Notes: generated by a model not told the origin, from the sequence alone. Shown: positions 1 to 17,992, counted from the stretch's first letter. The stretch is DNA of 64,000 nt from Synechococcus sp. (GCA_047285535.1 JBJBDC010000001.1:1248136-1312135), one strand, 5' to 3'. A program made the numbers and translations.

Positions 1-1265
1 CAAAATCAGCTTCGAAAGCCAAAACAACAAAGAAGGCAAGCGCTAAAACAAAAGCAAGCAGCACAAAAACAAAAGCAAGCAGCACAAAAACAAAAGCAAG
101 CAGTACAAAAGCGAAAGCAAGCAGTACAAAAACAAGCAAAGCGAAAGCAACTTCTACCACCGCCAAGTTGGAAGCGTCAGCTGATCAACTCCTTGCAGCG
201 ACTGACAAAACGACCGCAGTCGCAAAAATCAGCGATAGCGCAGCAACGTCAGCCACAGACGCCAAAGCAGAAGCCAAAGCCAAGGTTCTTGCAAGTATTA
301 AAGTTGGGCCGAAAGGGGTTTACACCGAAGACTCCATTCGTGTTTACCTTCAGGAAATAGGAAGAATCCGCCTTCTGCGTCCAGACGAAGAAATTGAATT
401 AGCTCGCAAAATTGCAGACCTGCTCCACCTCGAGGAACTGGCTGCACAGTTTGAAAGCGATAACGGCAAACTTCCTGTCACGAAGGAATGGGCTGCACTG
501 GTGGAAATGCCAGTGATTCGCTTCCGACGAAGGCTGATGCTTGGTCGTCGCGCAAAAGAAAAAATGGTGCAATCCAATTTGCGCCTTGTGGTGTCGATTG
601 CCAAAAAATATATGAATCGTGGCCTGAGCTTTCAGGACCTCATTCAGGAAGGCAGCCTGGGACTGATTCGAGCTGCTGAAAAATTCGACCACGAAAAGGG
701 CTACAAGTTTTCGACTTATGCCACTTGGTGGATCCGTCAAGCGATTACCCGCGCCATTGCCGATCAATCCCGAACCATCCGACTACCGGTTCACCTCTAC
801 GAGACCATTTCCAGGATCAAAAAAACCACCAAGGTGCTCAGCCAAGAATTCGGCCGTAAGCCTACAGAGGAAGAAATCGCAGAATCGATGGAAATGACCA
901 TCGAAAAATTGCGATTCATTGCCAAGAGTGCCCAACTTCCCATCTCGCTTGAAACTCCCATTGGCAAAGAAGAAGATTCACGCCTAGGCGACTTCATCGA
1001 AGCCGATATCGAAAATCCAGAACAAGATGTTGCCAAAAATCTTCTCCGCGAAGATCTTGAAGGAGTTCTTGCTACGCTTAGCCCTCGCGAAAGAGATGTC
1101 CTACGGCTTCGCTACGGCCTCGACGATGGTCGCATGAAAACATTGGAAGAAATTGGACAAATCTTTGATGTAACCCGCGAGAGGATTCGTCAGATAGAAG
1201 CCAAAGCACTCCGGAAATTACGCCATCCAAACAGAAACGGAGTTCTCAAGGAATACATCAAGTAA
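1..1265 (+). CDS. rpoD: RNA polymerase principal sigma factor (group 1 sigma70); 5' end lies upstream of the window
   Basis: Region 1.2 ([11 protein letters not shown]), region 2 ([36 protein letters not shown]) and region 4 HTH ([24 protein letters not shown]). The frame is open from position 3, so the TTG at 168 is not the true start. Confidence 0.97.
45..134 (+). repeat. In-frame 21-bp tandem repeat (about 4.3 copies, K-T/A-K-A-S-S-T) in the low-complexity N-terminal extension of RpoD
   Basis: aaaacaaaagcaagcagcaca at 45-65 and 66-86, with variants at 87-107 and 108-128. Confidence 0.9.
1124..1263 (+). repeat. Left copy of the 140-bp island-bounding direct repeat (rpoD 3' end)
   Basis: Gap-free alignment to 17853-17992 with 9 mismatches. 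Confidence 0.95.
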
Positions 1266-1271
1266 CCTGAG

Positions 1272-1305
1272 TATTACTGAGACCTCTGTCTCTAATAGGG
1301 TTTTT
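1272..1305 (+). terminator. Possible rho-independent terminator of rpoD
   Basis: tatta-ct-gagac/ctct/gtctc-taata hairpin followed by ggg and a T run; the stem is weak. Confidence 0.35.
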
Positions 1306-1956
1306 ATTGAGCATTAAGATGTGTTATGGCCTGGTTTTTTGAAATCAGGGCCCCATTTTCTCAATCCTTAAAACTCACTCTTTTGATCATGCTTCTGAGC
1401 GTGCTGATCGGTACGTGATGCATGAGTAGCTCCAGGAACTGAGTACATAGGCTCCACTTACGTGGGGCTTTTTGATGAGTACCCATTCGGAGGATCAAGG
1501 ATTCGGAAGCACCGCTCCTCTTGAAGAGATGCAGGCGTGATAACAACTGATGCAAGCTGATTTGCAATGAATAGATCAAGCACTAGGTCTTCAGAAGAAT
1601 TTCCGCAAAAAAGGGGGTTCTCAAAGTCATCGACAGGCTTAGACCTTCACGCTTGTTCAGCAAGTTCTGCAAGAGCTACCCATTCTGGTGGAAGGGAACA
1701 CTGCAATCGCACAGGTTGCCTACTTTTGTAGGGAAGCGATTACCGGTGAAGAAGAGTAGTCGATCCCAATCGCGGCTCATCACCAGAGTTCGAGCCGCTG
1801 GCCTGGAACAGCAAAAGCATGTCGCCATGGGTAAAAAACCCTCCCCTGGGGCTCGAAATAAGAGTGTCGTAAACCATAGAAGCCCTCATCAAAGGAAGCG
1901 CGAAAAACCTAAAGAGAAGAAGAAATTTTCATTCAAACAAGACAGCAAAGTTTAGA

Positions 1957-3681
1957 GTGAATTTATTTGAAACTATGGAAATAAAATCATTCCTCGAAGG
2001 CAACCAAGACTTGGCAGAAGCATTGAGTGCTCTTCCCTTCATTGAAGAACTAGCCGAAACCGATTACGGCAGTATCTCGCTCAATAAATTTATCAACATC
2101 ATGGGTTCGAACGGATTTGAGGCTGAGAGTTTAAGAAGATCACTGCAGCAAGCCGTAGAATCTCTAATTGTAAATAACGAAACCCCACCAGAAGATCCCT
2201 TCAGCATTTCACTGGACGACTGGAAGCCATTAATTGGTGATGAGAGATCTAACGAAATAATCACAGCAATATCAAATTTGAATAAAGAAATTGACCTTGT
2301 AGCTGGTGGGACATCGTCCTCCAATCACAAAGCAGCTAGGGCGGTAGGAGCGACAGTAGTTGCAGCAGCCGGAGCTGCTACGCTTACATTCGCTGCAAAG
2401 AAATTGAAAGAGAACAAAAATAACATTGAGAAAGCCATCGAGATACAGGCCAAAATTGAGGCTGGCACTTTCGTTGAAGGCCGCGACATACCAGCAACAT
2501 GGACAAAAGATTGGCAGAACGCTAAAAAGGAAGTCGAAAGAAAGGCCAAAGATGCTGGAGTGTCACTGGAGGAGTATGAACGACGTGAATTTAGTGATGA
2601 ATTTTTCAGGGTGGGTGGACTGAAAGGCTTAGAGAAGCCTGTTATCAGTGCAATAGACAAAAATTTCCCCATTACAATCCTGCCGGAAGACTTAGCGAAG
2701 GCAAAAACAGCCATCAAGAAAGAACTGAAAACACAAGCCGATAATTTTGCAGAAACACGGTTTGGGATGGAATTCACCCTACATGGAGCAAAAGAAGAAA
2801 TAAAATCAATTGCCGATCAGATGATTGAAGAAAAGGTACTGACGCCAAGGATCTCGACAAGAAAGGTAGACGAATTAGCAACCAAAGCAACAGAAGCTGT
2901 ATTAGAATCATCAATAAAGACATTATACGAAAAAGATAAAGATCTAATAAAATTAATCAGCCCAGAAAACTTAAGAAGATTTGTCAAAGGCAAAATATCT
3001 GAAAGTGATTTAATTGAAAAAATAAAGACTAACAGCGCCTTTGCGAGGGCAAGTAAACGGGCAATACAATTCACAGAACAAGAGAAAGAAATGCTCTTGA
3101 AAGTTCCAACTGAATTCAAAAATAACATCCAAGGGATAAAAATAGACCTGAAAAAGTCAATGAAAAGCGCTTTAGACGATAAATTCAAAGAGACAATCAA
3201 CGAAAGAGCGGGGTTGGCGTTCAAGGAAGATTTTAATAAGGAAGATTTCAATCTTGAAACCTTAATGCCTAATTTAATAGACGATCATACTAAAATAAAG
3301 AAAATTTCCGCCAAGATCACGGCATTATCCGAGTCAGATATAATTAGCGATAAATTTGGAGGTGCAATAACCAAGGATATTGTTAAAGGCGCAGTGCAAG
3401 ATGTAAGAACAGAAGTCAGAAAAGAACTGAGAGACGTAATTGAAAAAGACTTAGTAAGCGCAGGGGAAATGCGTATGGAAAAAGAACTTGACATCGAAAC
3501 AGGAAAAGTTTCGGAAAAGATAGAAAAAGAATATATAGATAAATTTGAAACCCTTATAGATGATACAGCCAAAACGGATGTGGCCAAAGTAGCAAAAGCA
3601 TTTGAAAAAGATATTGCAAATCAACTTGTTAACGACCTTTCAGACTTTGGCGGTGGAAAGATAATAGATAAAATGGAGTAG
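1957..3681 (+). CDS. Large hypothetical protein (574 aa) with a Nif11-like double-glycine leader (EIDLVAGG, residue 118); putative PCAT substrate
   Basis: Long ORF; the leader ends ...LNKEIDLVAGG at nt 2310, followed by an Ala/Gly-rich hydrophobic stretch and a Lys/Glu-rich helical body; no Cys. The start could be ATG 1975. Confidence 0.8.
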   Translation: MNLFETMEIKSFLEGNQDLAEALSALPFIEELAETDYGSISLNKFINIMGSNGFEAESLRRSLQQAVESLIVNNETPPEDPFSISLDDWKPLIGDERSNEIITAISNLNKEIDLVAGGTSSSNHKAARAVGATVVAAAGAATLTFAAKKLKENKNNIEKAIEIQAKIEAGTFVEGRDIPATWTKDWQNAKKEVERKAKDAGVSLEEYERREFSDEFFRVGGLKGLEKPVISAIDKNFPITILPEDLAKAKTAIKKELKTQADNFAETRFGMEFTLHGAKEEIKSIADQMIEEKVLTPRISTRKVDELATKATEAVLESSIKTLYEKDKDLIKLISPENLRRFVKGKISESDLIEKIKTNSAFARASKRAIQFTEQEKEMLLKVPTEFKNNIQGIKIDLKKSMKSALDDKFKETINERAGLAFKEDFNKEDFNLETLMPNLIDDHTKIKKISAKITALSESDIISDKFGGAITKDIVKGAVQDVRTEVRKELRDVIEKDLVSAGEMRMEKELDIETGKVSEKIEKEYIDKFETLIDDTAKTDVAKVAKAFEKDIANQLVNDLSDFGGGKIIDKME

Positions 3682-3829
3682 GTCAAGAAAAAAAAGATAA
3701 GTTCCGACAATTAATTGTGAATATGAGCGCTTCAATAGTGTTATTTCTAAGCAGGTTGCTCATTAGCAAATTGAGCTGTCAGGTCGCTTCCTATTGGAGT
3801 GTCACGGACCAACCATGACCAAACAACTC

Positions 3830-4569
3830 ATACATGCAAAATCCAATGCCCATCTCACTCACAAGAGTCATCTGAAATTTAGCTCTCATCTCCTGAAAGA
3901 CCACCGACCCTGGCTGAAATGGCTGCAGAAGCTGAGATCGTTCTGCGATGTACCTACAGTTGGCTGAACTGGCGTCACAACAACAGGCTGTGAAACCTGG
4001 AGCGCGTGCCTCCTGTACAGCCCAACAAACACCTGACACCAGGCATCATGAACCACATCGAAATGCAAAAACTGTACTGCTTTTGTAAAGCGAGAAAACG
4101 CAACTTGGAAAAAACAGCGTCGCTAATCTGAAGTGAGAAACGACCAAGGCTGTGTTGCCATCGAAAAGGCCAAACGACTGGCCTAGTCGGAGTGCTTCCC
4201 GAAGAGCAGCAGGGCACAGGGATCGGCTTGATGAGCCGTGCATGGGACTGATTTAACGACAAAGGTCTCGAATGCGATCAGATAATGAACGACAACAGCC
4301 CCAACTACATCACACGCAGAGTTGCCAAAGCTTGCAAGTCGCTGGGCCTTGAGCTCAGACGAACCACTCTGTACACACTGCGGAGCATCGGCAAAACTAA
4401 ACGTTTTGAAAAATCCTTGGTAAAGAGTGGAATTACGAATGTTCGTCAAGAACGCTGAGGAGCACATCCCCTGGCTGCCCTGGGATCTCTGAATCTATAA
4501 CCAGATCAGGGGGCAAACGGTCATCGAAACAATTCAGCTCACCAACGGTTCCATCAGCTGCTCTGCTAA
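3830..4569 (+). pseudogene. Decayed IS481-family DDE transposase
   Basis: Ordered fragments across frameshifts and stops: SNAHLTHKSHL..DHRP / LAEMAAEAEIVLRCTYSWL / NLERVPPVQ..PGIMNHIEMQKL / CVAIEKAKRLA* / VLPEEQQGTGIGLMSRAWD*FNDKGLECDQIMNDNSPNYITRRVAKACKSLGLELRRTTLYTLRSIGKTKRF / KEWNY / WLPWDL*IYNQIR / QLLC*. They match the IS481 motifs HVAIDD..RLAY.EVL.DE, M.DNG..Y...FAKAC..LG...RT..YTPRTNGKAERF and EWAY. Confidence 0.85.
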
Positions 4570-4814
4570 TCAACAAGGGAAAAATCAAAGGCAAGTCACA
4601 ATGACAATGCCTTAAATGAATAGAAAGCATGTCAGCTGAAATTAAGTTGCGTCGAAATAAAATCGCAACCGATAAATGACTGGAAAAGACTACGAAGAAA
4701 AAACAAAATAGAGACCAATACATTCAACCAACCATCCCTCATAGACAAATAAAAAATTCATAAAAGCTTTGAGTCAAAACTATTGCGCAAGTCAAGAAAA
4801 ATATGGCCTCATGC

Positions 4815-4859
4815 TTGTTTTGTATATTTGATTCAAATCGAATCAAATATACAAAACAA
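4815..4859. repeat. Perfect 20-bp inverted repeat with a 5-nt spacer
   Basis: ttgttttgtatatttgattc-aaatc-gaatcaaatatacaaaacaa. Confidence 0.95.
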
Positions 4860-4950
4860 AGCAAGACGAGTCTCAAATTCATGAAGAGTTATTGCAGAAT
4901 TAAACCGGCTTAACGGTGGCTGCTAAAAATATAGATATCGATATTTCTCA

Positions 4951-5268
4951 ATGACAAGTTCTACAGCTTTGGACACAAAGGCTGACAGTGAAGGTAGCGA
5001 ACAGTTGTCTGAGAAATTTATTGAATGTCTACAAACTCAAGCTGGTGAGATTGCAGAAAAATTCCCAAACATTAACCCAATGGAGGCTCACGCCTGTGCC
5101 TTGATCTTTGTTGATACATTGGCCAAACTTCATGAGGCTGGACTCGAGGAGTCAGTTAAAGCTGGAGATGCAAGGCAAGCAGGATCTTGGACCAGAGACC
5201 TTACCATTTTTGAAACAGTCATATCACTCCTCAGAAACATCCAACCACTTGATATAGACGCAATATAA
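4951..5268 (+). CDS. Hypothetical acidic protein (105 aa)
   Basis: ATG-started ORF with protein-like helical composition; no family recognised. Confidence 0.65.
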   Translation: MTSSTALDTKADSEGSEQLSEKFIECLQTQAGEIAEKFPNINPMEAHACALIFVDTLAKLHEAGLEESVKAGDARQAGSWTRDLTIFETVISLLRNIQPLDIDAI

Positions 5269-5491
5269 TTGTTTAAAGGAGCTATAAAAAACATAATCTT
5301 GGAGATTCCAAGACAATGGAAAGATCATTTATGAATCAATATTCCAAGTCACATCTAGATTTAGCGATAAACAAATACGATCAAAAGAAAAAAATTGAAT
5401 CCTCTGCCTGAAAATACAGTTAGTAAAAAGGATTGCTAAACGAGAAGCCATCACAGAATCTTTGCCATCTAAGCATCTTTTTTTCTAAATT

Positions 5492-5517
5492 TATCCATAC
5501 CTAGAAAGGTATGGATA
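5492..5517. repeat. Perfect 11-bp inverted repeat upstream of the export operon
   Basis: tatccatacct-agaa-aggtatggata. Confidence 0.85.
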
Positions 5518-5845
5518 CAAGATCTAAACTGAACAAAACAATGTTCAAAGCGACACCACGTCTTTGAAAAGGGATAAAGAATTGAACAAAAAGGATATTG
5601 AATAAACACAAGTAACGTCAGGTCACGGTTTATTTGCTGTTAACGAATAGAAGCATCACCATGTTAGATATAAAATCATTGGAGGATCGAAGCGAGCAGA
5701 AAGCAAGTAGATCTAATTCATTGCACAGGGAGGAGCAATGGTCGCAATATAAGACAAACCAGCAAGCGTTAGGATATACATATATTTTATTTAAGAGCCT
5801 TGATTTGATGGAAAATAAACGTAAAATACAAAAAAATTAGAGCCT

Positions 5846-7051
5846 GTGAAAAACAAGCTGACAGAAGCAGCTGTCAAGAAACCCTTTCTCATAACGACAG
5901 TCTGCTTGTCAGCCTTAGGAGCTACGACACTAATTTGGTCAATATTTGGAAACCTTAAATTAGAATCAACAGGCATCGGAGTTATTTTGAGGGGCAAACA
6001 TTTTGTCACCATTTCAGCGCAAACAAGCGGAGTAATCAATAAGCAATACTTTAAATTAAACGATAAAGTACTTAAAGGTGAAAAAATTCTGTCTATGGCT
6101 AGCGAAATTAATAAAATCAGATTAGAGCAATCTCTTAAAACAATAAGCGAAACTCAGCCTTTAATTAAGCAAGCAAATAAAGCCGGAGAAGCAGATCTAA
6201 AAATTGCATCTGATTCGATAATCCGAGCGAGAAAGAATTTAGAGGCATCAATGCCAAAACTACAAGAACTTATTAAAGATCAAGAAATTGCATACAACGG
6301 ATTATTGAAGTTGTACTCAAATGGGCAGGTTGGAACACAAGAACTGGCAAATTCATTTTCGACACTATCAAGGCTCAAGCAACAAAGACAAGAATTAAGA
6401 CGACAGCTCCAAAATATAGAATCCAACTACAATCAACTACTGCAACAAAATGCTCAAAATGAAATACAATTAAGTTCAGAGATGATTGCCAATCAATCAC
6501 TGAAAGCTCAATTATTGCAGAAAATTAAACTCGCAAAAAATATACGAGCGCCGTTATCTGGGACAATCGTAAGCTACAACGTACCTGTTGGTGGATTTGC
6601 ACAAGAGGGAGATCCTTTAATAACGCTGAGCCCATCAGAAGGGCCACTGCGGGCAATTATCCTGGTTGGCGCAAAAGATTATGGAAGAGTCAAAGTAGGC
6701 AATAAAGCTTTAATCTCTCCAAGTGCTAGCCCGGCAATTAGATTTGGATATATTGAAGGTAGAGTATTTTCAAAGTCAGAAGCACCTGCAACAAGTGCAG
6801 AGCTAATAAAAGCATTTGGCTCTCAAGAGATAGCTCAAACATTAATCAATAGTTTTTCAAGGCAAGGAAGAGCTGATCTGCCTTATCTTGTTGATATTAT
6901 CATTGATCAAAAGAATAATGAGCCAATTTGGACCCTTGGGAAGCAACCACCGTGGGGTGTCAGTTTAGGAAGTGAGGCATCTGTGAGAATAGTATCAGAT
7001 GAAACGAGTCCTATCAGTTTAGTAATACCCTTTATACGAGGAGGGATATGA
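5846..7051 (+). CDS. HlyD-family membrane fusion protein, NHLM bacteriocin secretion type
   Basis: N-terminal TM ending WSIFG, GIGVIL, lipoyl half-motifs (ISAQTSGVI / IRAPLSGTI..GDPL), a central coiled coil, and RFGYIEGRV. Confidence 0.9.
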   Translation: MKNKLTEAAVKKPFLITTVCLSALGATTLIWSIFGNLKLESTGIGVILRGKHFVTISAQTSGVINKQYFKLNDKVLKGEKILSMASEINKIRLEQSLKTISETQPLIKQANKAGEADLKIASDSIIRARKNLEASMPKLQELIKDQEIAYNGLLKLYSNGQVGTQELANSFSTLSRLKQQRQELRRQLQNIESNYNQLLQQNAQNEIQLSSEMIANQSLKAQLLQKIKLAKNIRAPLSGTIVSYNVPVGGFAQEGDPLITLSPSEGPLRAIILVGAKDYGRVKVGNKALISPSASPAIRFGYIEGRVFSKSEAPATSAELIKAFGSQEIAQTLINSFSRQGRADLPYLVDIIIDQKNNEPIWTLGKQPPWGVSLGSEASVRIVSDETSPISLVIPFIRGGI

Positions 7052-9186
7052 ATATAAATAACGCATTAGATTCTCTCCTTCGAAATGCATCGAGACAACC
7101 TCCATTTAATATTATTTTTCAATCAGACGAAACAGAATGCGGATTAGCATCATTAGTAATGGTGCTCAATATTTTTGGCAAAGATATCACGATCGAAAAA
7201 ATACGCAATGATTATGGCTCTACGAGAGGTGGGATGTCTATCGGTGAATTACGAAAACTTTCCATACTCTACGGTCTATTAGCATTGCCAGCAAAAGGAA
7301 ATCTGATTAAAAATGATAAATGCCCTGTAATTATATTTGCACACGGGGATCATTTTGCTGTTCTATGGGAAACCAAGAACAATCAATACTTCATAGCCGA
7401 TCCAGCTGATGGCAACCTTGTGTTGTCTCAATCAGAATTTGATGATTATTACTCTGGCATTTATATTGAGTTCAAAACAACTAGTAAATTCCAGATTACA
7501 GAAGCCAAAAATATTTCAAGAGAGCAAGATTCAACGCCGTCGCTGTCTACACTTTTATATAACAACAAAACCATAAACAGGTTAATAATACTATTTGCGT
7601 TTATTGCAGCATTTTTCACATTATTCAATGCAGCAATTCAAGATGTGTTCATGACCTATGTAGTAGAAGAAGGCCTTACTCTTTGGACAAAAGGCATGAT
7701 ATCTATAACAATAATAGTATCTATTGGCTTAGCATTGGCAACCTTCATGATGCAGATTGCTGCGCAAAGACAACTTCAAAACTCACTTCAGGGATGGAAT
7801 ATTGAACTTTTTAGTTCACTGTTTAGGGCTCCATATCAGTTTTTCATCAATAAAACATCAGGATTAATTGTCTCAAGATTCAATCAACTTGAAGAATCAT
7901 TTACCGGTTATCAATCATCAGTCATTGCGGCTTTAACAGGAGCCCTAAATCTTCTTATATTTATAGTCGCCGTAACAGTAGTCAGTATTCCTCTTGCATT
8001 TATTTCGGTAATAGGAATTGCAGGTTTTATGGCGGTTGGCTATAGGTTCCTCGGAATTAATATACAAAATAATTACCGATTAAGGGAAGCAGAATGTAAA
8101 GTATCTTCTTCTGAATTCAAACTTATACAAGGAAGAAATCAAATAACATTAGAAAACGGTGAGCAATCAATACTCAGAGAATTATCTTCTGGCTATTCAG
8201 CCTTGGGCACATCTCAACTCTCAATACAAACAACAGAGATTAGAAGTGAATTCATGCTTGGCATGATTGATCAATTACTTAACACTTTCCTTCTTATTAT
8301 ATCCTCTATTTTAATCGTCAAGGGCAATCTGACCACAGGAACTTATGCCGCTATCAATGTAATTATTGGAACAGCACTTGAGCCTATTCGGTCACTGGCT
8401 TCCCTAGTAGAGCAACTTCAGAATTCAAGGTTAATTTATAAATCTGCTCTTGACCTTTATCAACCAGAATCAAATGAAGTGATCACCACAAACAATGAAT
8501 TGAATATGGATAACCCTATGCTTAGCCTTTACAAAGTAACATTCAAGTATTCACTTTATGCAGAACCAATCTTTGAAAATATAAGTATCAGAATTGCTCA
8601 TCCTAAAAAGGAATGTATGATTGTAAGGTTATCCGGATCAAGCGGATCTGGGAAAAGTTCATTACTCAACGTGATTTCTGGATTGGTAAAACCGAACACG
8701 GGTTTGGTCAAAGTCTTTGGGATCAACACATCAAACACATCTCCTCAAAAAATCAGGCATATTATTCAATATATCGATAGAAATGTAATCATAGTAAAAG
8801 GATCAGTGGAAATGAACACTAGATTGGGAACAAGTGCAAGTCATAGTGAATACGAAGAGGCTGTGGAGATGTTGGGGCTAAGTTCACAAACAATCTTTAG
8901 CCAACAAAGCAAGCGCTACCTTGCTGATCAATCATCTATTAGCGTAGGTCAATCAATCATGATTGCCCTCGTCCGATCAGTTCTGATCAAACCCAAGTTA
9001 CTCCTAGTTGATGAAGCACTAGTCAGTATTCCTGAACAACTTCATGTCGGAATAATACGTGGGCTGAGAACACTGGGAATAAGCGCAATCATTGTTCAGC
9101 ATGGTAATGACGGCTTTATTTCAAAACTTGCCACTATCGATCTTGATAGGTTTAAAAATGAATCCGGGGAGGCTCTGGAGAAATGA
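7048..9186 (+). CDS. Peptidase-containing ABC transporter (C39 peptidase + TMD + NBD)
   Basis: C39 catalytic motifs QSDETECGLASL (Cys), HFAVL (His) and IADPA (Asp); several TM helices; Walker A GSSGSGKSS; Walker B LLLVDE; ATGA overlap with the upstream gene. Confidence 0.93.
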   Translation: MNINNALDSLLRNASRQPPFNIIFQSDETECGLASLVMVLNIFGKDITIEKIRNDYGSTRGGMSIGELRKLSILYGLLALPAKGNLIKNDKCPVIIFAHGDHFAVLWETKNNQYFIADPADGNLVLSQSEFDDYYSGIYIEFKTTSKFQITEAKNISREQDSTPSLSTLLYNNKTINRLIILFAFIAAFFTLFNAAIQDVFMTYVVEEGLTLWTKGMISITIIVSIGLALATFMMQIAAQRQLQNSLQGWNIELFSSLFRAPYQFFINKTSGLIVSRFNQLEESFTGYQSSVIAALTGALNLLIFIVAVTVVSIPLAFISVIGIAGFMAVGYRFLGINIQNNYRLREAECKVSSSEFKLIQGRNQITLENGEQSILRELSSGYSALGTSQLSIQTTEIRSEFMLGMIDQLLNTFLLIISSILIVKGNLTTGTYAAINVIIGTALEPIRSLASLVEQLQNSRLIYKSALDLYQPESNEVITTNNELNMDNPMLSLYKVTFKYSLYAEPIFENISIRIAHPKKECMIVRLSGSSGSGKSSLLNVISGLVKPNTGLVKVFGINTSNTSPQKIRHIIQYIDRNVIIVKGSVEMNTRLGTSASHSEYEEAVEMLGLSSQTIFSQQSKRYLADQSSISVGQSIMIALVRSVLIKPKLLLVDEALVSIPEQLHVGIIRGLRTLGISAIIVQHGNDGFISKLATIDLDRFKNESGEALEK

Positions 9187-11180
9187 TTGCTTATTCAGCA
9201 TCTGAGTATGCTCGTTATCTTCTTGAAAAAAAGAATGGCGAATTGTTGAGCGACCAAAATATCAAGACCAACTTAAGTGATCTTGCCGACAATGAATCGT
9301 TAACTCCAAGACAATTAGTTGAGACACTTTCATTTTATTTGCAAGTTAATGAATTACCCTACAAACACGAGACTGCAGTTTATTTGTCGGGATTAGGTAA
9401 AACAGTGTTTGCGGTATTAGAGACTGCAATTATAAGTCTGGATGATCTCGCAACAGCCAAAAACAACGATGAAATGAAGGATAGCAGTCTTTATGTTTTG
9501 AGCTCTAGTGTTCCGCAGAAAAAGCTAAGTAAGCTTTTGTTCCTCCAAGCGTTCATGAAAAGTCGTTGGAGTATGATACTAACACTTTTAATACTCGGTC
9601 TTCCAGCAGTAATTGCGCCTGCAATTGCAGAATTGCTGCAACAACCATTGTTTGATTCATTAATTCCCGAAGGCAGAATTCCCGCTATATTATTAATAGG
9701 AATAGCATCTATTCTGTTGCAAGCTAGTGGGCAAATCATAAGCAGTGTAAGCAGTCTGCTTTCTACTTACTTTACAAATAATATAGAGCTCGAGTCTAAG
9801 CTTGCAACTGCTAAAAGATTTTTAGATGCCAAACAAGCCTCTATTCCTCAGAAAGATATTGGCTCGTGGCGAATTACATTTAGTGTTGCAAGCTCATTTA
9901 TTGAATCAATTCAGTCGATATTCATTTCAATTCCAATTGCGATTATTTCGCTGATCGCGAATCTGCTAGTCGTTGGTGCATTTACAGATCTTCGTGCCAT
10001 CTGGCATTTATTCCTACTGATGCTTTTGCCGACTGTAATTAGTTCCATCATATCATATATCAGCTCCAACTACTATATAAAAATAATGGCCCAACAATCA
10101 TCCATAGAAACAACAATCTACGAAGTGGTGAAGGATATAAGGGAAATTTGGATGCTCGGATGTGAATCTATTTATCTAAATAGATTCTTTAGGTCTCGAA
10201 AAGCGATGTCAATTAACATGCTCTCAGCAGGTTTACTACAGTCACTATCTTCATCGTTCAATAATTTCTTTCAAGGGATTCTATACGCTTACATCTTTTT
10301 TGAGTTTTATCGCTCAACAGAATCGTCTTCATCGGAGCTATCTGTTGGTGCGCTCCTAGTGATGTATTTTGCGGTTGGTACCATTGGTGGTTCACTAGCA
10401 TCAATCTCCTCTGATCTCGTTGATCTAGCTCAAAGCCTCCCTACCTACTGGATGCCAAATGCTATTAGGGATATTGATGCCTTTGAAAGAAAGTCGTACT
10501 CAAAGGAAAAATGCCCAAGTAAAATCATACTCTCTGATGCAACTTTCTTGTACGGTGACATTCGAGCACCATTTCCGGAACCTATTAATATTAAGTTAGA
10601 ATCGGGTTTCAATTATGCATTAGTAGGACCATCTGGTTCAGGAAAAACAACTTTACTGAATATCATTGCGGGTCAACTATCTTTAACAGAGGGTAAGATG
10701 GAGATCTTTGATCGATTCAACCAAAAGGTAGATATATCACTGTCTGATTGTAATATTCTATATCTTGGGCAAAATACTAGTTTATATGGCTCGATTTTAC
10801 GGGATATTCTTGATCCAACAAAGTCGTTCACAGATAAGCAACTGTATAGTGCCATTTCAAAACTTAATCTAGATGAAATCATGGAATCACTTCCACTTAA
10901 ATTAAAAACACCAATCAATGAATTCAACAGAGATCTCTCTCTCGGACAGCTTCAACGCTTTAAACTTGCAAGGGCACTTCTTACTGATTATGACATTATT
11001 ATGAGCGACGAAATAACATGTCATCTTCCAGAAGATCTGCATTTACAGGCCATTCAGTTATTAAACAATAGATCAAGAATTCACATTTCCTCATTACATA
11101 GACTCTCTGCTGTTTCTCTCTTTGATAAGTGTATTACTTTGAATGGTAATGGAGAAGTTAAGGAGGCCGTTTCAACATGA
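9183..11180 (+). CDS. Second ABC transporter (TMD + NBD, no peptidase domain), NHLM-type partner subunit
   Basis: Multiple TM helices, Walker A GPSGSGKTT, signature LSLGQLQRFKLARALL, IIMSDE, HRLS; ATGA overlap. Confidence 0.9.
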   Translation: MIAYSASEYARYLLEKKNGELLSDQNIKTNLSDLADNESLTPRQLVETLSFYLQVNELPYKHETAVYLSGLGKTVFAVLETAIISLDDLATAKNNDEMKDSSLYVLSSSVPQKKLSKLLFLQAFMKSRWSMILTLLILGLPAVIAPAIAELLQQPLFDSLIPEGRIPAILLIGIASILLQASGQIISSVSSLLSTYFTNNIELESKLATAKRFLDAKQASIPQKDIGSWRITFSVASSFIESIQSIFISIPIAIISLIANLLVVGAFTDLRAIWHLFLLMLLPTVISSIISYISSNYYIKIMAQQSSIETTIYEVVKDIREIWMLGCESIYLNRFFRSRKAMSINMLSAGLLQSLSSSFNNFFQGILYAYIFFEFYRSTESSSSELSVGALLVMYFAVGTIGGSLASISSDLVDLAQSLPTYWMPNAIRDIDAFERKSYSKEKCPSKIILSDATFLYGDIRAPFPEPINIKLESGFNYALVGPSGSGKTTLLNIIAGQLSLTEGKMEIFDRFNQKVDISLSDCNILYLGQNTSLYGSILRDILDPTKSFTDKQLYSAISKLNLDEIMESLPLKLKTPINEFNRDLSLGQLQRFKLARALLTDYDIIMSDEITCHLPEDLHLQAIQLLNNRSRIHISSLHRLSAVSLFDKCITLNGNGEVKEAVST

Positions 11181-12832
11181 GATTATTTTCATTAAATACC
11201 GGAGCTAAACTCTTCTTTTTAATAATTACCTCTTTTTTCAATCCTTCCTCTTATTCCTCTGCCAGCGAAATCAATGCTAAGTACAGCAATCATAGTTTTT
11301 CAGAAAAAGCTTGCAAGGATGAAAGGATTAAGGCAAATTTATTGCTAGCAGGAAGATTGCCTACATTCTACAATTGTTCAAACAGAATTGCTTTTAATTC
11401 AACTCCCACAAAATCGAAGTCTTCTGCAAAAGAGTTTTTTAATCTTGAGCCACTTTCCAACCCGAGTATTAAATCATTAGAGTTTGACTATAAAGCATCC
11501 GTTTATAAGGTTAAGTCAGCATATGGTGCATGGTGGCCAAATGTTTCAATGTCAAATAGTTCTATATTGTTTACAGATATACTTTCTAGGCAAAATTATG
11601 ATGCTCCAACCTCATCAACGTCGTCTCCTTCGAGTCGGGGAACGAGTTTTAATCCTATCGATCGCTCTAACCGAAATAACACAAGTAACTCTGATCAACT
11701 AACCGGTTTCAATACTACTTACGCTAACTATATTCAAGCGTATCCAGTTATCACTGTTGAATGGAATTTTTTAGATCCAACTCGTTATCCAAGCATAGCT
11801 GCCGCAAAGAAGCAAAAACAATTAGCATTGCTCGAGCTCGAGAAAACAAAATCAAATCTTCAAAGTAAAATAAGTCAACTCTCAGTTGAGTATCGTTATT
11901 CTCTTTATACGATTGGAGAGTTAATTCAAATTATGAGTATTCAAAAAGATATTATTTCACTTACAAAGTCTCTAGTTGACCTTAAAGAGTTGCCAAGAAT
12001 TCAACAAATTAAAGCACTTCGTGAGCAAGCTCAGTCCCAGAATCGTCTGAACCAAGCCCAAATTAGACTAGCTAATATTAAATCTGAGATTGCATCTATC
12101 ATTCTCCCTCAAATTCAACATTTAAAGCTCGACACCGTAACGGTAGATGATGTCATTAATGATTATTTACTTAAAGAAAACTACACTGAAAAATCATTGA
12201 AAGAATGGAGTCGTGACTCTGATACGACATATCAATTGGCATTAGAAAACTCTTCTAAAGTTAAAGAACTAACATTACAAGCAGGCATTTCTAAAGACTC
12301 TGCCAACCAAGAATGGGGATCTATACTGCCAACTATTGGATTTCTTGGTTATATTACATATCAGTATACAGCTGGAAGCCAAAATTATGCACCTCCTGAG
12401 CAGCCTAATGGTGCAGCGTCGGCGGTGCTAACAAATTATTTTGGACTTTCAGTGTCATGGAATCTCTTTGATGGATATGCCACTCGGCACCAGGCAAGAG
12501 CGTATGAAATGAAAGAACAATCACTATTAAAGAAAATAGAACAAGAAGTCATCACTCTGCGACCATCGACACAGCTACTACTGACCAAACTTAATTTCTC
12601 AAAAAAGCAAATTGATCTAGCAATCAAAGATTCGTCTGCTGCAAAAATAATCTCTTCAGATGTTGAGGCCAGATCTCAGTATGGTTTAGGCAGTCAATAC
12701 GATTATTTTAGTGCCCTTATTGATTATCATCAATCAAAGATCTATCTTCTCGAAGCATTATCTGAATATAGTCGAATATATCTTCAATTGTCACGTTTGA
12801 CAAGTTCAAACACGTCTGGTTCGTCAATTTAA
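11177..12832 (+). CDS. TolC-family outer membrane efflux protein
   Basis: Signal peptide, two OEP-like repeats (WWPNVS..VEWNFLD; ILPTIG..LSVSWNLFDG) with helical coiled segments; ATGA overlap. Confidence 0.85.
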   Translation: MRLFSLNTGAKLFFLIITSFFNPSSYSSASEINAKYSNHSFSEKACKDERIKANLLLAGRLPTFYNCSNRIAFNSTPTKSKSSAKEFFNLEPLSNPSIKSLEFDYKASVYKVKSAYGAWWPNVSMSNSSILFTDILSRQNYDAPTSSTSSPSSRGTSFNPIDRSNRNNTSNSDQLTGFNTTYANYIQAYPVITVEWNFLDPTRYPSIAAAKKQKQLALLELEKTKSNLQSKISQLSVEYRYSLYTIGELIQIMSIQKDIISLTKSLVDLKELPRIQQIKALREQAQSQNRLNQAQIRLANIKSEIASIILPQIQHLKLDTVTVDDVINDYLLKENYTEKSLKEWSRDSDTTYQLALENSSKVKELTLQAGISKDSANQEWGSILPTIGFLGYITYQYTAGSQNYAPPEQPNGAASAVLTNYFGLSVSWNLFDGYATRHQARAYEMKEQSLLKKIEQEVITLRPSTQLLLTKLNFSKKQIDLAIKDSSAAKIISSDVEARSQYGLGSQYDYFSALIDYHQSKIYLLEALSEYSRIYLQLSRLTSSNTSGSSI

Positions 12833-12924
12833 TCCCATAAATATACAAATATTTTCAAATAATTGTATACGTGCATCTAATTGTTGGTTGTTGTGTTTGA
12901 GAAATTGAGAAACGAAACAAGCCC

Positions 12925-13107
12925 CTATCGTGCTTCATCTAAAATAAAAAACAGACAACATGGTATCAATGAAATACAAATTGCCAGTACTAAGTACTGA
13001 TTTATTGATTGATTTAGCAAAGACTTAAGCAAAAGAACTGCGAACAATGGGTGAATTATTAATAAGCACAAGATCACTATCGTTAATTCATAAATCCCCA
13101 GAGCCAT
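12925..13107 (-). CDS. Possible small two-TM membrane protein (60 aa)
   Basis: MALGIYELTIVILCLLIIHPLFAVLLLKSLLNQSINQYLVLAICISLIPCCLFFILDEAR; may be a chance ORF in AT-rich DNA. Confidence 0.35.
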   Translation of the reverse strand: MALGIYELTIVILCLLIIHPLFAVLLLKSLLNQSINQYLVLAICISLIPCCLFFILDEAR

Positions 13108-13206
13108 AAAATGCTGCAACCAAATATTAAGAATTAAGTGGCAAGATGATTGGGCGGCACCATTGGGCCATAAGATCATTAAAATGAGGAGTAAATAGTA
13201 GGAATA

Positions 13207-16200
13207 GTGAGCATGGGAGATTTCAATTTATTTTACCAAGCTCTTCAATCTTTAGATAACGACATCACCATTTTAGGCACAAGCGAGGATTTAGTTGTCG
13301 CTGATTGGCTCAAAACAGAGGGATATGATATTACCTACATTCTTGACTGCCTTAAAAAAATTAAAAGAAGCAACGGTGAAACTAACTCTAAAACACTCAC
13401 CGTTGAAATACTTGGTGACAAGAGAAAACGTGAACTGCTGCTAAGAAGCTATAGAGATTCCATTGATAGTACTGCCGGTGGAATGTTGACTTCTGTAGAA
13501 AGAGTAAGAGAAGCATCTATTAAAGGTCTAAAGAATCATCGCGACTTGCTGGAGAAAGCCCAAAGTGAAATTGAAAAAGGAAAAATAGCAAAGGAGATGG
13601 TTCCTACAGTTGAAGGTGGAATTGAGCCAGCATACATCAATAAAATATCCTCAATAAAAGAACTAGTAAATTCTCGGCCTGTTCATCTATATTGGAAAAA
13701 CTATCAGGAAATGCGAGATATCGGTTGGCATGCTTATGCAAAAACACGGTTAATTAGCTTCATAAAATATGCTGTTAGGAAACAATATGCGAATTGGAAA
13801 GCTGCTTATATTGCTGCTCTGGGATCATCAGCAAATAGGGGGAATTGGTCTGGTGGATATATGAACGGCACTAAACAAGATGGTTCTGGTTACATATCCT
13901 ATGGAAGAAATGGAGATCATTACACATCATATTCGATATACGGAACTTGGGATGACCCTTTTCAAAAAGGTGGTTCATTTAATATCAATATTTATGGTAT
14001 GAATAGCCAATGGAGGCTAGAAGGAAATAAGCATAATACTGCAATTACGGCTTCTATTAATGAAAGTAATGGCAAAATTACCTATACATCCTACATAGAG
14101 CCTGATAATGCTGGTCTTATTGCATTACCAAAATACACAGGAGAGGTGACATCTCGACAAATTCTAGAGAAATCAAAACAATTCCAAACTGACGAGAACA
14201 TTGTTCACTCTTATGAGAATGCAACTCTAGGCTCATCTTTTGCAGCTGTCGTAAGAAAGCATTATCCAAATTTCAATATCAATGAGAAAGTCAAAGATTT
14301 TCAAAAAATCTTGGCTTATTCAGCCATTGCCTATGTTGTCAAAAGAACCTACATTGCTGAAGGAAAGATTAATAGCCAATTTATTAATCAAGCGCTTAAG
14401 CGATTGACTGAGACTGGCACGTTACATGATGCATTCGCTTTAATTAACTATCAGGCGCGCATGCAAAAATTACATCTTGATCATATACTGAGTGCCACAA
14501 ATCTCAAACACAAAGCCAAAGCCTCGCGTGTTTGGGCCTCTGAAGAAGTTGCTCTTGATAGAGTTGCGAGAAACTCAATTCTCAATAGTAGCCGAGAGTA
14601 CCAGCGATTAATTAATGATGGACTTAGTAATAAAATGGCCGAAAGAGCCGCCAACCTGACATTTTTCTCCGATTTGTTGGTCTTTGACAGCTTTATATAT
14701 AGTGCTCCTACAAAAGACATTAAACTAGATTTTACGAAAAAGGACGCAACTATTGCTAATTACTCTCGCATCGCATTACCCGTTATTATTACCCAAGAAG
14801 CAAAGATCAGCAAGACGATTCTGCGACAAGAGAAAACGTTTAAATACATTCCTAAGTACACTAATTTAGTTCTAAGCTTCGAGAAACTAAAGTATGAGGC
14901 GTTTAGGGCGATATCAGTTGGCTCTTACGACTATTTCAAGCAGTACCTGGGTTTTCATCCGATTCATCGTTCGCTCAGGTTCATGAAAAATTCAGTTATT
15001 TTACCGACAGAAAAATGGATTGAAAGTTGGGGAAATAGTGCCTTGTGGACACAAATAACAACTGATGCCTTTTCAACTGTTAATTTTGTAGGGTTTTCAT
15101 TAACACGAGCAATTGTTCACTTACCTAAGCACATTTATGAAGATACTAAAAAGCTAGGTGAGCAGCTCGTTCATTTATTTAGTGGTGGTGATACTTGGGC
15201 TGGAATTGGAGGGGGCATATGGCGAGATATTAAAGGTCCTGTCAAAACCATTGAATTATTGGGTGAAAATGCCCTACTTGTTTTCGCGAGCTCCTTTGAT
15301 CCGCTATTCTATAAAACAAAGTTTGCAAAATCAATTATAGGCAAAGATAAAAACTTTGGGCAACTTATTGCAGATGCATGGCACTACGAATGGAACAAAC
15401 AGCGAATAAAATTAGCGCTTACTTTGCACAAGATCAATGCCCCGATAAGAAAGGAACTAAGTGAAATCACGAATGGTAAAATACCGAATCCAAGCGCATC
15501 ATTTTTTAGTAACCATGAAAATCTTAATGCCAAAAAAAATCAATTAACTCTGAAACTTTTAATCTCTTTCAGGTCCGGAATAACGAGCAAGTTGCAAAAT
15601 CATGCTGACGCAATTAACACTGCAATAACGATTGCTCAAGCCAATAAGTTTAAGACGACAAAAGATCTCCTTGTGCTTTCACAAGGCGGAAAAGTAAACA
15701 TTAATGGAAAAACAATTAGCGGCATGGAAATCAATGATGCACTCCAGTCATTAATTGCGAATATGGCTGACAAATATATTGCTTCAAAAGATTATACAAA
15801 TAAGCAAGAAAAGACTTTTGTTATCAATAATCTGGCCACGACAGAATTTAGAGATGGATTTCAAGCATGGACTCAGCGACAATTGGCAATATTTAAAAAC
15901 GAAATGAAGATGTATCAATACATAAATCAACAAAGTACTCGCTTTGAACAATTAGCTTTCAAGATCTCTATAGCCAACAAAATCAATCGGGGAATTAAAG
16001 ATGAAGGTTCTTCCTTGAAGTATCAGGTAGGTCATTTATGGCATCAAGGAAGAGCCAATACATTCTTTTTCAAGGCGTTTGATAAGCCCTTGCAGCATTC
16101 ATTCAATGCTTTATCTACTGGTAAGAAAACCAATGAAGCAAATAAGCAACTGAATCATTTTCAAAGAAATCATAAGCCCGGTGAAAAGCTATTTGCTGAC

Positions 16201-17265
16201 ATCCTTCTAACAGAAACAGCAGATAGAGTTATGCGGAATATTGGAAATATTCACTATAAAATTGAAACTGGAGCATATGCTATTGGTACTTCTAAATATC
16301 AGAAGGACTTGCCTTTCGCTAAAAAAGAGCTGCTTCTTTCGATGCGCTTGCATCAGAACACAGCTCAAGAGATTGAAGAATGGAGCAAGAGGATTAAAAT
16401 CACAAATCGACTTGGAAAGATCACACTGGATCAAGCTAGTCTTTCTAAACTTAAGAATGCAACATTCAACGGGCTACTGACAAAAGCCAAACAAAACATT
16501 CATCTTGTCACTGCCGTTGATTCAAGCTTAGTAAAAATAGCCAATAAAGAGTCATCTATTCTCAATAAACCGATCACAGTGCAAGACGTAATTACAGGGA
16601 CGGAGAATTGGTGGGATCGCGCAGTAAGTAAAGGATACTTTTATCAGCATTGGAAAACCGTTGTGACGACTCGCTCATCTCATAATGCGGCACTTGCAGC
16701 GTTATTGAATGATGTTGAAATTCTTCAAGGTGGTGGAAGCATGACATTTGGACAATTTATTAACTCTCTTCCTCAAAATAAGAATTGGAAGCTTTCACTC
16801 GCTCCTCATGCAATTCCTTCAAGGGGTCCATCTTCAATTGCTATTAGCAACTTAAATATCAAAGCAGGAGTCCTTACACCTAAAAAAGTAAATCAAGTGG
16901 CAAAACAAAAGGTGAAAGTTCCTATTCTTTTGTTCAAAAACCGTATAAAATTTGCGAGAAACATATGGAAAAAAATCACTGGCAGTGGCAAAAAAGATGA
17001 TCTTCTCCAGCAAATCGAACACGCTGAAAAGAAGACTATTGTCAATGCAGATGAAAGACGCGTCGCCAAAGAGCTAGGAGAAGACGAGCTTAAGGAATTG
17101 GATAATCTTCTTGTTGAGGATGCGATCAAAGTTGAAAGTGAAGCGGAATTATCAATTGAAATTGAAGAATCCAACGCACTGAGTTCAGTTGACGAACTTA
17201 TCGATACAACTTTAACTGACGCAATAGACACAACAGAGGAAACTATTGCAGAAGCTATAGTTTGA
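13207..17265 (+). CDS. Giant hypothetical protein (1352 aa) with a Nif11-like double-glycine leader (SIDSTAGG, residue 92); putative PCAT substrate
   Basis: 4-kb ORF downstream of TolC; purine-rich RBS-like sequence upstream; leader ends at nt 13482; strongly acidic C-terminal tail. Confidence 0.85.
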   Translation: MSMGDFNLFYQALQSLDNDITILGTSEDLVVADWLKTEGYDITYILDCLKKIKRSNGETNSKTLTVEILGDKRKRELLLRSYRDSIDSTAGGMLTSVERVREASIKGLKNHRDLLEKAQSEIEKGKIAKEMVPTVEGGIEPAYINKISSIKELVNSRPVHLYWKNYQEMRDIGWHAYAKTRLISFIKYAVRKQYANWKAAYIAALGSSANRGNWSGGYMNGTKQDGSGYISYGRNGDHYTSYSIYGTWDDPFQKGGSFNINIYGMNSQWRLEGNKHNTAITASINESNGKITYTSYIEPDNAGLIALPKYTGEVTSRQILEKSKQFQTDENIVHSYENATLGSSFAAVVRKHYPNFNINEKVKDFQKILAYSAIAYVVKRTYIAEGKINSQFINQALKRLTETGTLHDAFALINYQARMQKLHLDHILSATNLKHKAKASRVWASEEVALDRVARNSILNSSREYQRLINDGLSNKMAERAANLTFFSDLLVFDSFIYSAPTKDIKLDFTKKDATIANYSRIALPVIITQEAKISKTILRQEKTFKYIPKYTNLVLSFEKLKYEAFRAISVGSYDYFKQYLGFHPIHRSLRFMKNSVILPTEKWIESWGNSALWTQITTDAFSTVNFVGFSLTRAIVHLPKHIYEDTKKLGEQLVHLFSGGDTWAGIGGGIWRDIKGPVKTIELLGENALLVFASSFDPLFYKTKFAKSIIGKDKNFGQLIADAWHYEWNKQRIKLALTLHKINAPIRKELSEITNGKIPNPSASFFSNHENLNAKKNQLTLKLLISFRSGITSKLQNHADAINTAITIAQANKFKTTKDLLVLSQGGKVNINGKTISGMEINDALQSLIANMADKYIASKDYTNKQEKTFVINNLATTEFRDGFQAWTQRQLAIFKNEMKMYQYINQQSTRFEQLAFKISIANKINRGIKDEGSSLKYQVGHLWHQGRANTFFFKAFDKPLQHSFNALSTGKKTNEANKQLNHFQRNHKPGEKLFADILLTETADRVMRNIGNIHYKIETGAYAIGTSKYQKDLPFAKKELLLSMRLHQNTAQEIEEWSKRIKITNRLGKITLDQASLSKLKNATFNGLLTKAKQNIHLVTAVDSSLVKIANKESSILNKPITVQDVITGTENWWDRAVSKGYFYQHWKTVVTTRSSHNAALAALLNDVEILQGGGSMTFGQFINSLPQNKNWKLSLAPHAIPSRGPSSIAISNLNIKAGVLTPKKVNQVAKQKVKVPILLFKNRIKFARNIWKKITGSGKKDDLLQQIEHAEKKTIVNADERRVAKELGEDELKELDNLLVEDAIKVESEAELSIEIEESNALSSVDELIDTTLTDAIDTTEETIAEAIV

Positions 17266-17692
17266 AAAAGTGGTTATCCCTCCACTCAGTTTCGAACAAA
17301 GCACGGGAGTCGAAGCTGCTAGGCACTCATTCTGACGGTTAAAAGCCGAAGTACAAAATCCTCTCTACTCGGATCCAAACCAGGGTTTCATCAGCTGGTT
17401 GATATTCAGGTTGCTCCCAATCGGTCGCAGCCTCAAGATTTTTTTAATTTGATGCATGTCACACCAATGGTTGGTCATAAGCATGATCTCGCGACTCAAC
17501 CGGTCTTAACTTGATCAGCGTAGAGATCTGTTCGTAAACATATAGTCCAGATCATGCGGTTTTCAACTCCCACCCAAATCCTGCAGAAATGTTCAGTGAT
17601 GGATGAGAAATAGTTCTTACTCATCACCTGTATAGAAACCACCAAGACATGAAATATGTTCAATGACTGAATAAAGCGAGGAGCAACGCCTG

Positions 17693-17746
17693 ATGCTCGC
17701 CTACGGGCTAGGTGATGATGGAACTGGGCTGGCCGCCAGCCATTTC
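17693..17746 (+). pseudogene. N-terminal fragment of a GPH/MelB-like MFS transporter
   Basis: Reads MLAYGLGDDGTGLAASHF; compare MLAYGVGDSGTGMASA in the intact transporter at 48361. Confidence 0.6.
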
Positions 17747-17852
17747 AAGTGGTTGGCATCGCTTCAATTTGGCTTTATCGAACTGGACTGTGCTTTAATT
17801 CATGACACCTCTATTGATATCAACAGCCAGCTCACGCAAGCCACATCGCCGG

Positions 17853-17992
17853 CGATGGACGCATGAAAACATTGGAAGAAAGTAGAGCAATCTTTGTTGT
17901 AACCCGCGAGAGGATTCGTCAGATAGAAGCCAAAGCACTCCGGAAATTAAGCCATCCCAACAGAAACGGAGTTCTCAAGGAATGCATCAAGT
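17853..17992 (+). repeat. Right, decayed copy of the rpoD 3' end (island boundary)
   Basis: 140 bp with 131 identities to 1124-1263; 7 of the 9 changes alter the encoded amino acid, and the following stop TAA has become TCA. Confidence 0.95.

Follow-up and report, generated by a model that had tools for sequence, protein, structure and literature searches.

Type I secretion is commonly taught as two modes: small peptides with a cleaved double-glycine (GG) leader leave through pumps with an active C39 peptidase domain, whereas large proteins with an uncleaved C-terminal signal leave through pumps in which that domain is dead or absent. The secretion of repeats-in-toxin (RTX) proteins by HlyB/HlyD/TolC belongs to the second mode, with a tripartite system moving very large unfolded proteins processively. 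[quoted passage not shown] Here we describe a Synechococcus sp. locus in which a pump with an intact C39 domain is flanked by two large proteins whose N-terminal regions end in Gly-Gly. The locus occupies positions 1957–17265 of a 64,000-nucleotide stretch (GCA_047285535.1 JBJBDC010000001.1:1248136-1312135; the whole stretch is hereafter the window), where ORF calling places a four-gene exporter and two flanking large open reading frames (ORFs), all on the + strand. Judged from its sequence, this island appears to be a self-contained, leader-cleaved type I secretion system for large proteins, a reading to which we assign a probability of roughly 0.6.

The processive transport mode of HlyB/HlyD/TolC is what cargo of this size would need, and the glycine-zipper segments of Cdz proteins resemble a Gly/Ala-rich helix found after the GG in one of the island's large proteins (P0001) and in proteins of a related genome (G425), although the island proteins are 5–15 times larger and have no recognised immunity gene beside them. 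The NHLM export cassette for NHLP- and Nif11-leader peptides of the prochlorosin type has the same three-gene core—HlyD, C39-ABC and a second, peptidase-less ABC protein—and handles substrates with long helical N-terminal leaders ending xAGG. The island nonetheless scores far below the cut-offs for this cassette, its operon has a TolC gene joined to it, its leaders match no NHLP or Nif11 model, and no maturase is present; cargo size also differs, at 445–1659 aa against 28–164 aa for cyanobacterial precursors (PMC3140520, in excerpt, like the other papers cited here). Microcin V (CvaAB-TolC), the class II microcins, PCAT1 and ComA are alike in combining an active C39 domain with an N-terminal GG leader that is hydrophobic at -4/-7, and microcin-type export takes a similar one-step HlyD/TolC route. 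Their leaders measure ~15–25 aa, however, and their cargo is below 10 kDa (PMC8277102, PMC10231218), compared with 81–151 aa and 45–180 kDa in the island systems, where the ABC pair consists of two different proteins. In HlyB-type systems, for their part, the C39-like domain of the pump is inactive, and the cargo bears RTX repeats together with a C-terminal signal that is not cleaved off (PMC8277102); the island has an intact, active-type peptidase, an N-terminal signal and no RTX repeats, and so falls outside the RTX type. A literature search, in which subscription journals were not covered, returned no paper in which a pump with an active C39 domain handles large cargo bearing an N-terminal GG leader. 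The excerpted text of a survey of peptides made by ribosomes and modified after translation (RiPPs) in marine Synechococcus mentions TolC, HlyD and C39 genes solely as neighbors of lanthipeptide genes (PMC10783134), and that of a polymorphic-toxin survey contains no GG-leader trafficking mode (PMC3482391).

The exporter and its flanking proteins

The exporter is encoded by four genes with an ATGA overlap at each of the three junctions: a HlyD-type periplasmic adaptor of 401 aa (5846–7051; Pfam HlyD_3, 34.8 bits, and HlyD_D23), a PCAT of 712 aa (P0004; 7048–9186), a second ABC permease/ATPase of 665 aa without a peptidase domain (9183–11180; ABC_membrane and ABC_tran) and a TolC-type outer-membrane factor of 551 aa (11177–12832; Pfam OEP, 117.3 bits). 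An ABC exporter, a membrane-fusion protein and an outer-membrane factor are thus encoded together, as in Gram-negative type I secretion. The PCAT opens with a C39 domain at residues 20–146 (Peptidase_C39 PF03412, 93.1 bits against a cut-off of 22), followed by an ABC transmembrane domain (ABC_membrane PF00664, 30.4 bits) and an ATPase (ABC_tran PF00005, 67.3 bits). Its catalytic set—Q25 of the oxyanion, C31, H102 and D118—is present in full and is invariant in 10/10 clade members. An earlier reading of this DNA, the original prediction, had proposed just such an overlapping four-gene operon with an intact C39 Cys/His/Asp set, and ORF calls, Pfam matches, gene junctions and catalytic residues all bear it out.

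The same prediction had typed the exporter as NHLM/PCAT. The PCAT half of that assignment stands on the C39 and ABC domains; the NHLM half does not hold, since the best NCBIfam matches of HlyD, PCAT and the second ABC protein are indeed the NHLM models TIGR03794/03796/03797, but all three miss the equivalog cut-offs by a wide margin (102.3 vs 156.2 for HlyD, 244.1 vs 853.3 for the PCAT and 141.0 vs 709.4 for the second ABC protein). Among solved structures, PCAT1 and ComA are closest to P0004 (E 1e-29 to 1e-27), and HlyB fell short of E 1e-20 in this structure-database sequence comparison. The second ABC protein is probably the heterodimer partner of the C39-ABC protein. A degenerate C39-like domain at its N-terminus was considered and found unsupported by hhalign.

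Upstream of the operon lies P0001 (1957–3681), a candidate large cargo that is all-helical and rich in Lys and Glu, with 574 aa if read from GTG 1957 and 568 aa if read from ATG 1975. The database form, P0007, has 568 aa, which makes ATG 1975 the likelier start and sets the leader at 112 aa (1975–2310, ending ...NKEIDLVAGG); by the GTG numbering, the Gly-Gly falls at residues 117–118, closing the motif EIDLVAGG. The two flanking ORFs with GG at residues 118 and 92 were correctly foreseen, and only the 574-aa start needed revision. Across five database homologues, the P0001 leader is 62–95% identical, against 28–63% for the body. LVAGG recurs in 6/6 aligned rows of the family and in P0029, and LVAGGTS is invariant in the five database homologues. 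Ten residues past the GG begins an Ala/Gly-rich hydrophobic stretch, AVGATVVAAAGAATLTFAA (2341–2397; Kyte-Doolittle window 129), which is followed by a basic cluster, KKLKENKNN. AlphaFold2 renders P0001 as all-helical with a mean predicted local distance difference test (pLDDT) score of 61, one helix (86–116) ending at the GG and a hydrophobic helix following at 125–138; Foldseek comparison of this model with the PDB gave no match at E <= 0.001. A complex prediction of C39 residues 1–150 with P0001 residues 68–130 scored 0.02, where the mark is 0.32, a value that counts neither for nor against docking. Neither P0001 nor P0002, the second large protein, belongs to a Pfam or NCBIfam family, and neither has a paralogue in the genome by blastp or tblastn.

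Downstream of the operon, P0002 (13207–17265) is a candidate giant cargo of 1352 aa without a known domain, and its family has one member in each of three islands. Its leader of ~90 aa (13213–13482) contains DWLKTEGYDIT, 52 residues upstream of the closing ...DSIDSTAGG, and the Gly-Gly of SIDSTAGG occupies residues 91–92. Two database homologues both carry T[AS]GG, which is found in 3/4 members of the family; the motif is less canonical here, with Thr at -4. At its other end, the last 60 residues of P0002 (window 17086–17265) are strongly acidic, with 20 D+E vs 2 K+R, and the same tail character recurs in the family members P0015 and P0018 (17–20 D+E vs 2–3 K+R across the three) despite low sequence identity in this region. 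This tail might serve as an additional signal of the classical type I kind. A search of the candidate cargo proteins for RTX or other Pfam domains yielded no match, the AlphaFold2 model of P0002 residues 93–800 was unusable (mean pLDDT 35), and a protein atlas search with P0002 returned no usable match.

Leaders, bodies and related islands

Orthologues of the PCAT were surveyed with P0004 in 400 family genomes and with a clade profile in 394 other family genomes that are >=90% complete. The operon was recovered in 2/394, namely G236, from the same genus, and G425, from a different genus; P0004 itself detected an orthologue in 1/400 sampled family genomes (G236), and searches of the genus and of a phylum-wide sample gave 1/45 other genomes (again G236) and 0/400 genomes, respectively. 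Gene order HlyD-PCAT-ABC2-TolC is kept in both, with ATGA junctions in G236, and identity to the window proteins is 39–50% for HlyD, 47–51% for the PCAT, 43–51% for the second ABC protein (ABC2), 36–40% for TolC and 53–63% for a 105-aa protein that accompanies all three operons.

Large proteins with GG-ending leaders flank the operon in these genomes as well. In G236, they are P0016, of at least 813 aa, with ...HSDVVGAAGG followed by Arg/Glu-rich repeats, and P0018, a P0002-family protein of 1323 aa with TGAG at the motif. G425 has five, of 466, 552, 445, 450 and 1659 aa; W(L/W)D(D/E)EGY occurs in each of their leaders of 112–151 aa, which close with ATAGG, NMAGG or AIAGG. The largest of them, whose leader carries WLDDEGY and ends ...AAVDAIAGG, is a distant relative of P0002 (1e-10 to P0015). 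Predicted mature sizes are ~456 aa for P0001, ~1260 aa for P0002 and ~294–1547 aa in the other islands. As in P0001, four of the five G425 proteins have, immediately behind the GG, a Gly/Ala-rich hydrophobic stretch of ~20–25 aa and then K/R residues. No such stretch follows the GG in P0016, in the P0002 family or in P0026 and P0028, two database proteins introduced below.

When 16 flanking or homologous proteins are aligned on the GG, position -1 is Gly in 16/16, -2 is Gly in 15/16 and -7 is Leu, Ile or Val in 16/16, with Ala (13), Ser (2) or Gly (1) at -3 and Thr (8), Val (5) or Met, Ile and Ala (1 each) at -4. Recognition positions in known GG leaders are L-12, E-8, L-7 and position -4 (PMC6363468, PMC6959990), and the island leaders correspond to a PCAT substrate—a leader running to Gly-Gly, hydrophobic at -4 and -7—as a sequence pattern only. 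The pattern [LIV]xx[TVIMA][AS]GG occurs within residues 61–160 in 14/1151 other frames >=300 aa of this genome, a background of ~1.2% that is a rough guide only and flatters the result somewhat, because the motif was defined after the proteins had been seen. Leaders from the three islands share an architecture: a helical region at the N-terminus bearing the motif W/L-x-D/x-E-G-Y/F, then ~50–80 residues of spacer and a terminal helix ending phi(-7)-x-x-[T/V/I/M/A](-4)-[A/S](-3)-G-G, for a total of 81–151 aa. Conservation of the GG motif, on which the original prediction had staked itself, extends throughout the P0001 family, to 3/4 of the P0002 family and to seven large proteins beside the two other operons.

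A leader profile built from nine leaders, A3, was searched against whole genomes (this genome, G000, and G236), and matched only two frames in each; all 4/4 adjoin the operon, the co-occurrence for which the original prediction had proposed a test with a leader hidden Markov model (HMM). Against 1.84 billion representative proteins, A3 gave 13 matches, of which we take 10 to be genuine and the other 3, each matching in 7–9 separate stretches, to be artefacts of repeats. New among the 10 are P0026 (841 aa, P0016-like, ...HSELVGAAGG), P0028 (214 aa, with the leader of P0026 and an 85-aa remainder), P0029 (159 aa, P0001-like and possibly cut off) and a 51-aa fragment. By BLASTP, the G425 leaders match those of P0026 and P0028 at 3e-6 to 4e-7, and the five best non-self matches of an HMM of P0002-type leaders are other leader classes, if weakly so (E 0.05–3.5). 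Scans of genome contigs with P0004 and A1, and of metagenome and viral contigs with A1 and A5, gave no match. A Nif11/NHLP origin of the leaders, which look Nif11-like by eye, was tried and found no support, with no Pfam or NCBIfam match and an hhalign probability below 4% against the Nif11 ORFs of the genome.

Most telling is a contrast in divergence among close relatives. For PCATs 99% and 100% identical to that of the window, the longest contigs measure 1,207,630 and 2,528,593 bp, exactly as for the P0001 homologues P0008 and P0009; their leaders are 95% and 94% identical to that of P0001, whereas their bodies are just 63% and 42% identical. Similarly, a 79%-identical PCAT and the paralogues P0010 and P0011 are all on contigs of 26,461 bp. 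A leader-addressed cargo module would be expected to look like this, the body changing fast while pump and leader stay constant, and the variable C-termini that the original prediction had proposed to look for are seen across the P0001 homologues as a whole (bodies 28–63%, leaders 62–95%). Public data hold ~70 further PCAT relatives at 42–56% identity, so that the clade of the pump extends beyond those leader families that the A3 profile can detect.

The island itself offers no conventional peptide pathway. No island ORF scanned matched a maturase in Pfam or NCBIfam, there is no LanM, YcaO, radical SAM or similar enzyme beside a short precursor as a RiPP cluster would have, and a search of ORFs of 25–200 aa across window 1–19000 for a small GG precursor found none plausible, its sole matches being 3 antisense or junk frames. 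In both respects, the absence of a recognizable maturase and of a short GG-leader precursor that was noted at the outset has been upheld.

Proposed mechanism and competing explanations

In the mechanism we favor, the terminal leader helix would dock in the C39 groove, the peptidase would cut after Gly-Gly, and mature P0001 (~456 aa) and P0002 (~1260 aa) would be threaded unfolded through ABC/HlyD/TolC over many ATP cycles. As cargo of this kind is far too large for the one-shot cavity of peptide PCATs, export would be processive, in the manner of HlyB, but from an N-terminal tether. Mid-size cargo might then present a hydrophobic helix rich in Gly and Ala at the N-terminus left by cleavage and act on or in a membrane, as a toxin or a surface anchor; as speculatively, the giant P0002-family protein could be a conserved co-exported partner and the 105-aa protein a dedicated accessory factor. 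More broadly, the three islands may represent an undescribed class of processive, active-C39 heterodimers that remove a leader of ~100–150 aa from fast-diverging, polymorphic cargo of 45–180 kDa, travel on small low-GC islands among picocyanobacteria, have mid-size cargo with a glycine-zipper helix at the new N-terminus and serve cell–cell antagonism or surface remodelling. This generalization is a tentative one, and we hold it to be somewhat more doubtful than even.

The co-inheritance of the pump with leader-bearing large proteins in three islands is central to the case for secretion, and several observations weigh against it. The three leader classes are just marginally similar to one another by profile, and the leaders match no leader HMM, whether in Pfam (E <= 10) or with TIGR03793 and TIGR03798/PF07862 (E <= 1). 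P0002-family leaders show no more conservation than the bodies (23–59% vs 24–75% identity), and P0018 has GAG in place of AGG. Linkage of the near relatives of the PCAT with P0008–P0011 on the same contigs is deduced solely from the equal lengths of those contigs. To our knowledge, leaders of 81–151 aa are longer than any described GG, Nif11 or NHLP leader. By sequence, P0004 is nearest the peptide PCATs, PCAT1 and ComA, rather than HlyB, and the predicted mature proteins exceed the small cargo (up to ~10 kDa) that is a property of PCATs: in the excerpted literature, cargo of active-C39 PCATs is put at <= ~10 kDa, with that above 50 kDa assigned to degenerate C39-like pumps (PMC8277102), the PCAT1 cavity of ~15,000 cubic angstroms accommodates one 66-aa cargo (PMC6959990), and export by the microcin V (MccV) system falls at 116 aa (PMC10231218). 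Finally, a hydrophobic helix and a basic cluster past the GG would fit equally well if the protein stayed in the cell and were anchored to the membrane by them.

That the post-GG helix suits a membrane-active N-terminus and an anchor alike is the reason for setting the anchor explanation first among the rivals. Here the leader proteins would be recognised, and perhaps cut, by the C39 domain and yet remain unreleased, held in the producer membrane by the helix as structural or regulatory parts of the machine, or as proteins that the machine inserts. The hydrophobic stretch with K/R residues that P0001 and all but one of the five G425 proteins have right behind the GG would be accounted for, as would the constancy of one P0002-family protein in all three islands, which is reminiscent of a core component. 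However, P0016, P0026, P0028 and the P0002 family have no hydrophobic stretch in this position, the protein bodies diverge far faster than the transporters (42% vs 100% identity), which is unusual for structural subunits, and the presence of the full HlyD/TolC conduit implies that cargo leaves the cell. We consider this explanation unlikely. A different division of labor, in which only the mid-size proteins are GG-cleaved and the P0002 family exits by an uncleaved C-terminal type I signal, with its GG merely docking or idle, would draw on the acidic last 60 residues of P0002, P0015 and P0018, on the less canonical motif of the family (Thr at -4; GAG in P0018) and on a leader no better conserved than the body. 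Such systems normally have a degenerate C39-like domain or none, according to the excerpted source (PMC8277102), the cargo has neither RTX repeats nor a Pfam match, T[AS]GG and the hydrophobic -7 are kept at 24–33% overall identity, and the giant protein of G425 has a clear ...AAVDAIAGG leader with WLDDEGY; together, these points make a C-terminal route for the giants distinctly improbable in our estimation.

The remaining explanation holds that the large ORFs are unrelated passengers and that the true cargo of the pump is small GG peptides, with genes elsewhere or too short to see. The genome does contain one NHLP-type precursor along with 8 ORFs that exceed the Nif11-leader cut-off, and NHLM-type exporters are, in the excerpted survey, often unlinked to their precursors (PMC3140520). 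It is hard to reconcile such a role with leader-bearing large ORFs beside the operon in three independent islands, and the island has no small GG ORF, the Nif11-type ORFs have no Gly-Gly by eye and other exporters are available to them. The chance that the large proteins are bystanders therefore appears slim, and the small precursors that the original prediction had allowed might be the real substrates are not evident as such, with Gly-Gly missing from the Nif11-type ORFs and the NHLM and NHLP exporters located elsewhere.

Should leader-cleaved secretion of large proteins prove correct, an active C39 domain serving 45–180-kDa cargo would show that the division of type I secretion into two modes is not mechanistic, and would break the accepted size rule. 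It would also raise the question of how a PCAT-like pump threads a long chain held by its N-terminus. A scar-free secretion tag for large proteins becomes a possibility, and marine picocyanobacteria would gain a mobile, strain-specific repertoire of large exported proteins with a possible influence on competition or grazing. Because the cargo, its predicted cleavage sites and the catalytic cysteine of the pump have all been pinpointed, the system is directly testable.

Island setting and other exporters in the genome

The island is bounded by a direct repeat of 143 nt. The left copy (1121–1263, + strand) is the 3' end of a sigma-70-type gene (3–1265), and the right copy (17850–17992, + strand), 93% identical, lies inside a 58-aa frame (17863–18039) that duplicates the C-terminus of the sigma factor. 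Because the repeat copies the 3' end of the gene, the gene is kept intact and the 58-aa frame is a remnant beyond the island. The copies are 16,729 nt apart and enclose a unit of 16.7 kb with 36–38% GC; GC content is 0.35–0.39 over 5–17 kb, compared with ~0.5 on either side and 0.506 across the genome as a whole (3.03 Mb). On these sequence features, the unit is a mobile low-GC island in a marine picocyanobacterium. No integrase gene was seen within the 16.7 kb, and tRNA and Rfam searches of window 1–22000 returned no match.

Two further elements lie between P0001 and the operon. The first is a stretch of 1.27 kb (3682–4950) in which the longest ORF is <= 96 aa; its GC content of ~0.43 is above that of the rest of the island, and it holds a 45-nt internal inverted match (93%). 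Neither Rfam nor the G236 island yielded a match to this stretch, and the genome has no second copy. The second, on the + strand, encodes the 105-aa protein (4951–5268), which belongs to no known family and gave no usable match in a protein atlas search. It is found in all three islands, where it is at least as conserved as the transporters (53–63% identity) and varies in position and strand; possible roles are those of chaperone, regulator or immunity factor.

Four further loci in the genome have a C39 match. A canonical NHLM set at 511–517 kb passes the cut-offs (PCAT 1010.9 vs 853.3, HlyD 238.6 vs 156.2). At 1818593–1831143 (1.818–1.831 Mb), a RiPP cluster of the thiazole/oxazole-modified microcin (TOMM) type encodes a 116-aa NHLP-like precursor, a YcaO/SagD cyclodehydratase and a SagB dehydrogenase, and adjoins its own four-gene TolC/HlyD/PCAT/ABC2 exporter. 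In a third TolC/HlyD/PCAT/ABC2 operon (177118–184113), the C39 domain has Ser for the catalytic Cys and lacks the His; no obvious substrate gene adjoins it. At 2494–13723, the gene for a 2094-aa protein lies directly upstream of one for an ABC protein of 974 aa, whose C39 match is weak and partial (24 bits), and of a HlyD gene; this locus resembles a type I system of the classical kind for large cargo. There are also 11 loci of Nif11-leader type, with 8 ORFs over the TIGR03798 cut-off; by eye, no Gly-Gly follows the Nif11 domain, and these ORFs may be stand-alone Nif11-domain proteins rather than exported precursors. Taken with the sub-cut-off NHLM scores, the other exporter loci mark the island pump as an extra, divergent system and not the house exporter for Nif11/NHLP peptides.

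The operons of G236 and G425 lie at genomic sites unrelated to that of the window, again in stretches of lower GC content (0.41–0.47 in a genome of 0.63–0.66 and 0.43–0.56 in a genome of ~0.65, respectively). A LuxR/GerE-type regulator is encoded upstream of the system in both (L024 2754–3449 in G236 and C160:34556–35449 in G425; 35% mutual identity), and tblastn found no counterpart in the window. G236 also has a 1005-aa DUF4347 protein, P0017 (L024 10958–13975), between the TolC gene and the P0002 homologue. This large neighbor has high GC content, SISTDGG-type repeats, a DUF4114-like C-terminus and no GG leader, and may be a later insertion or cargo of another type.

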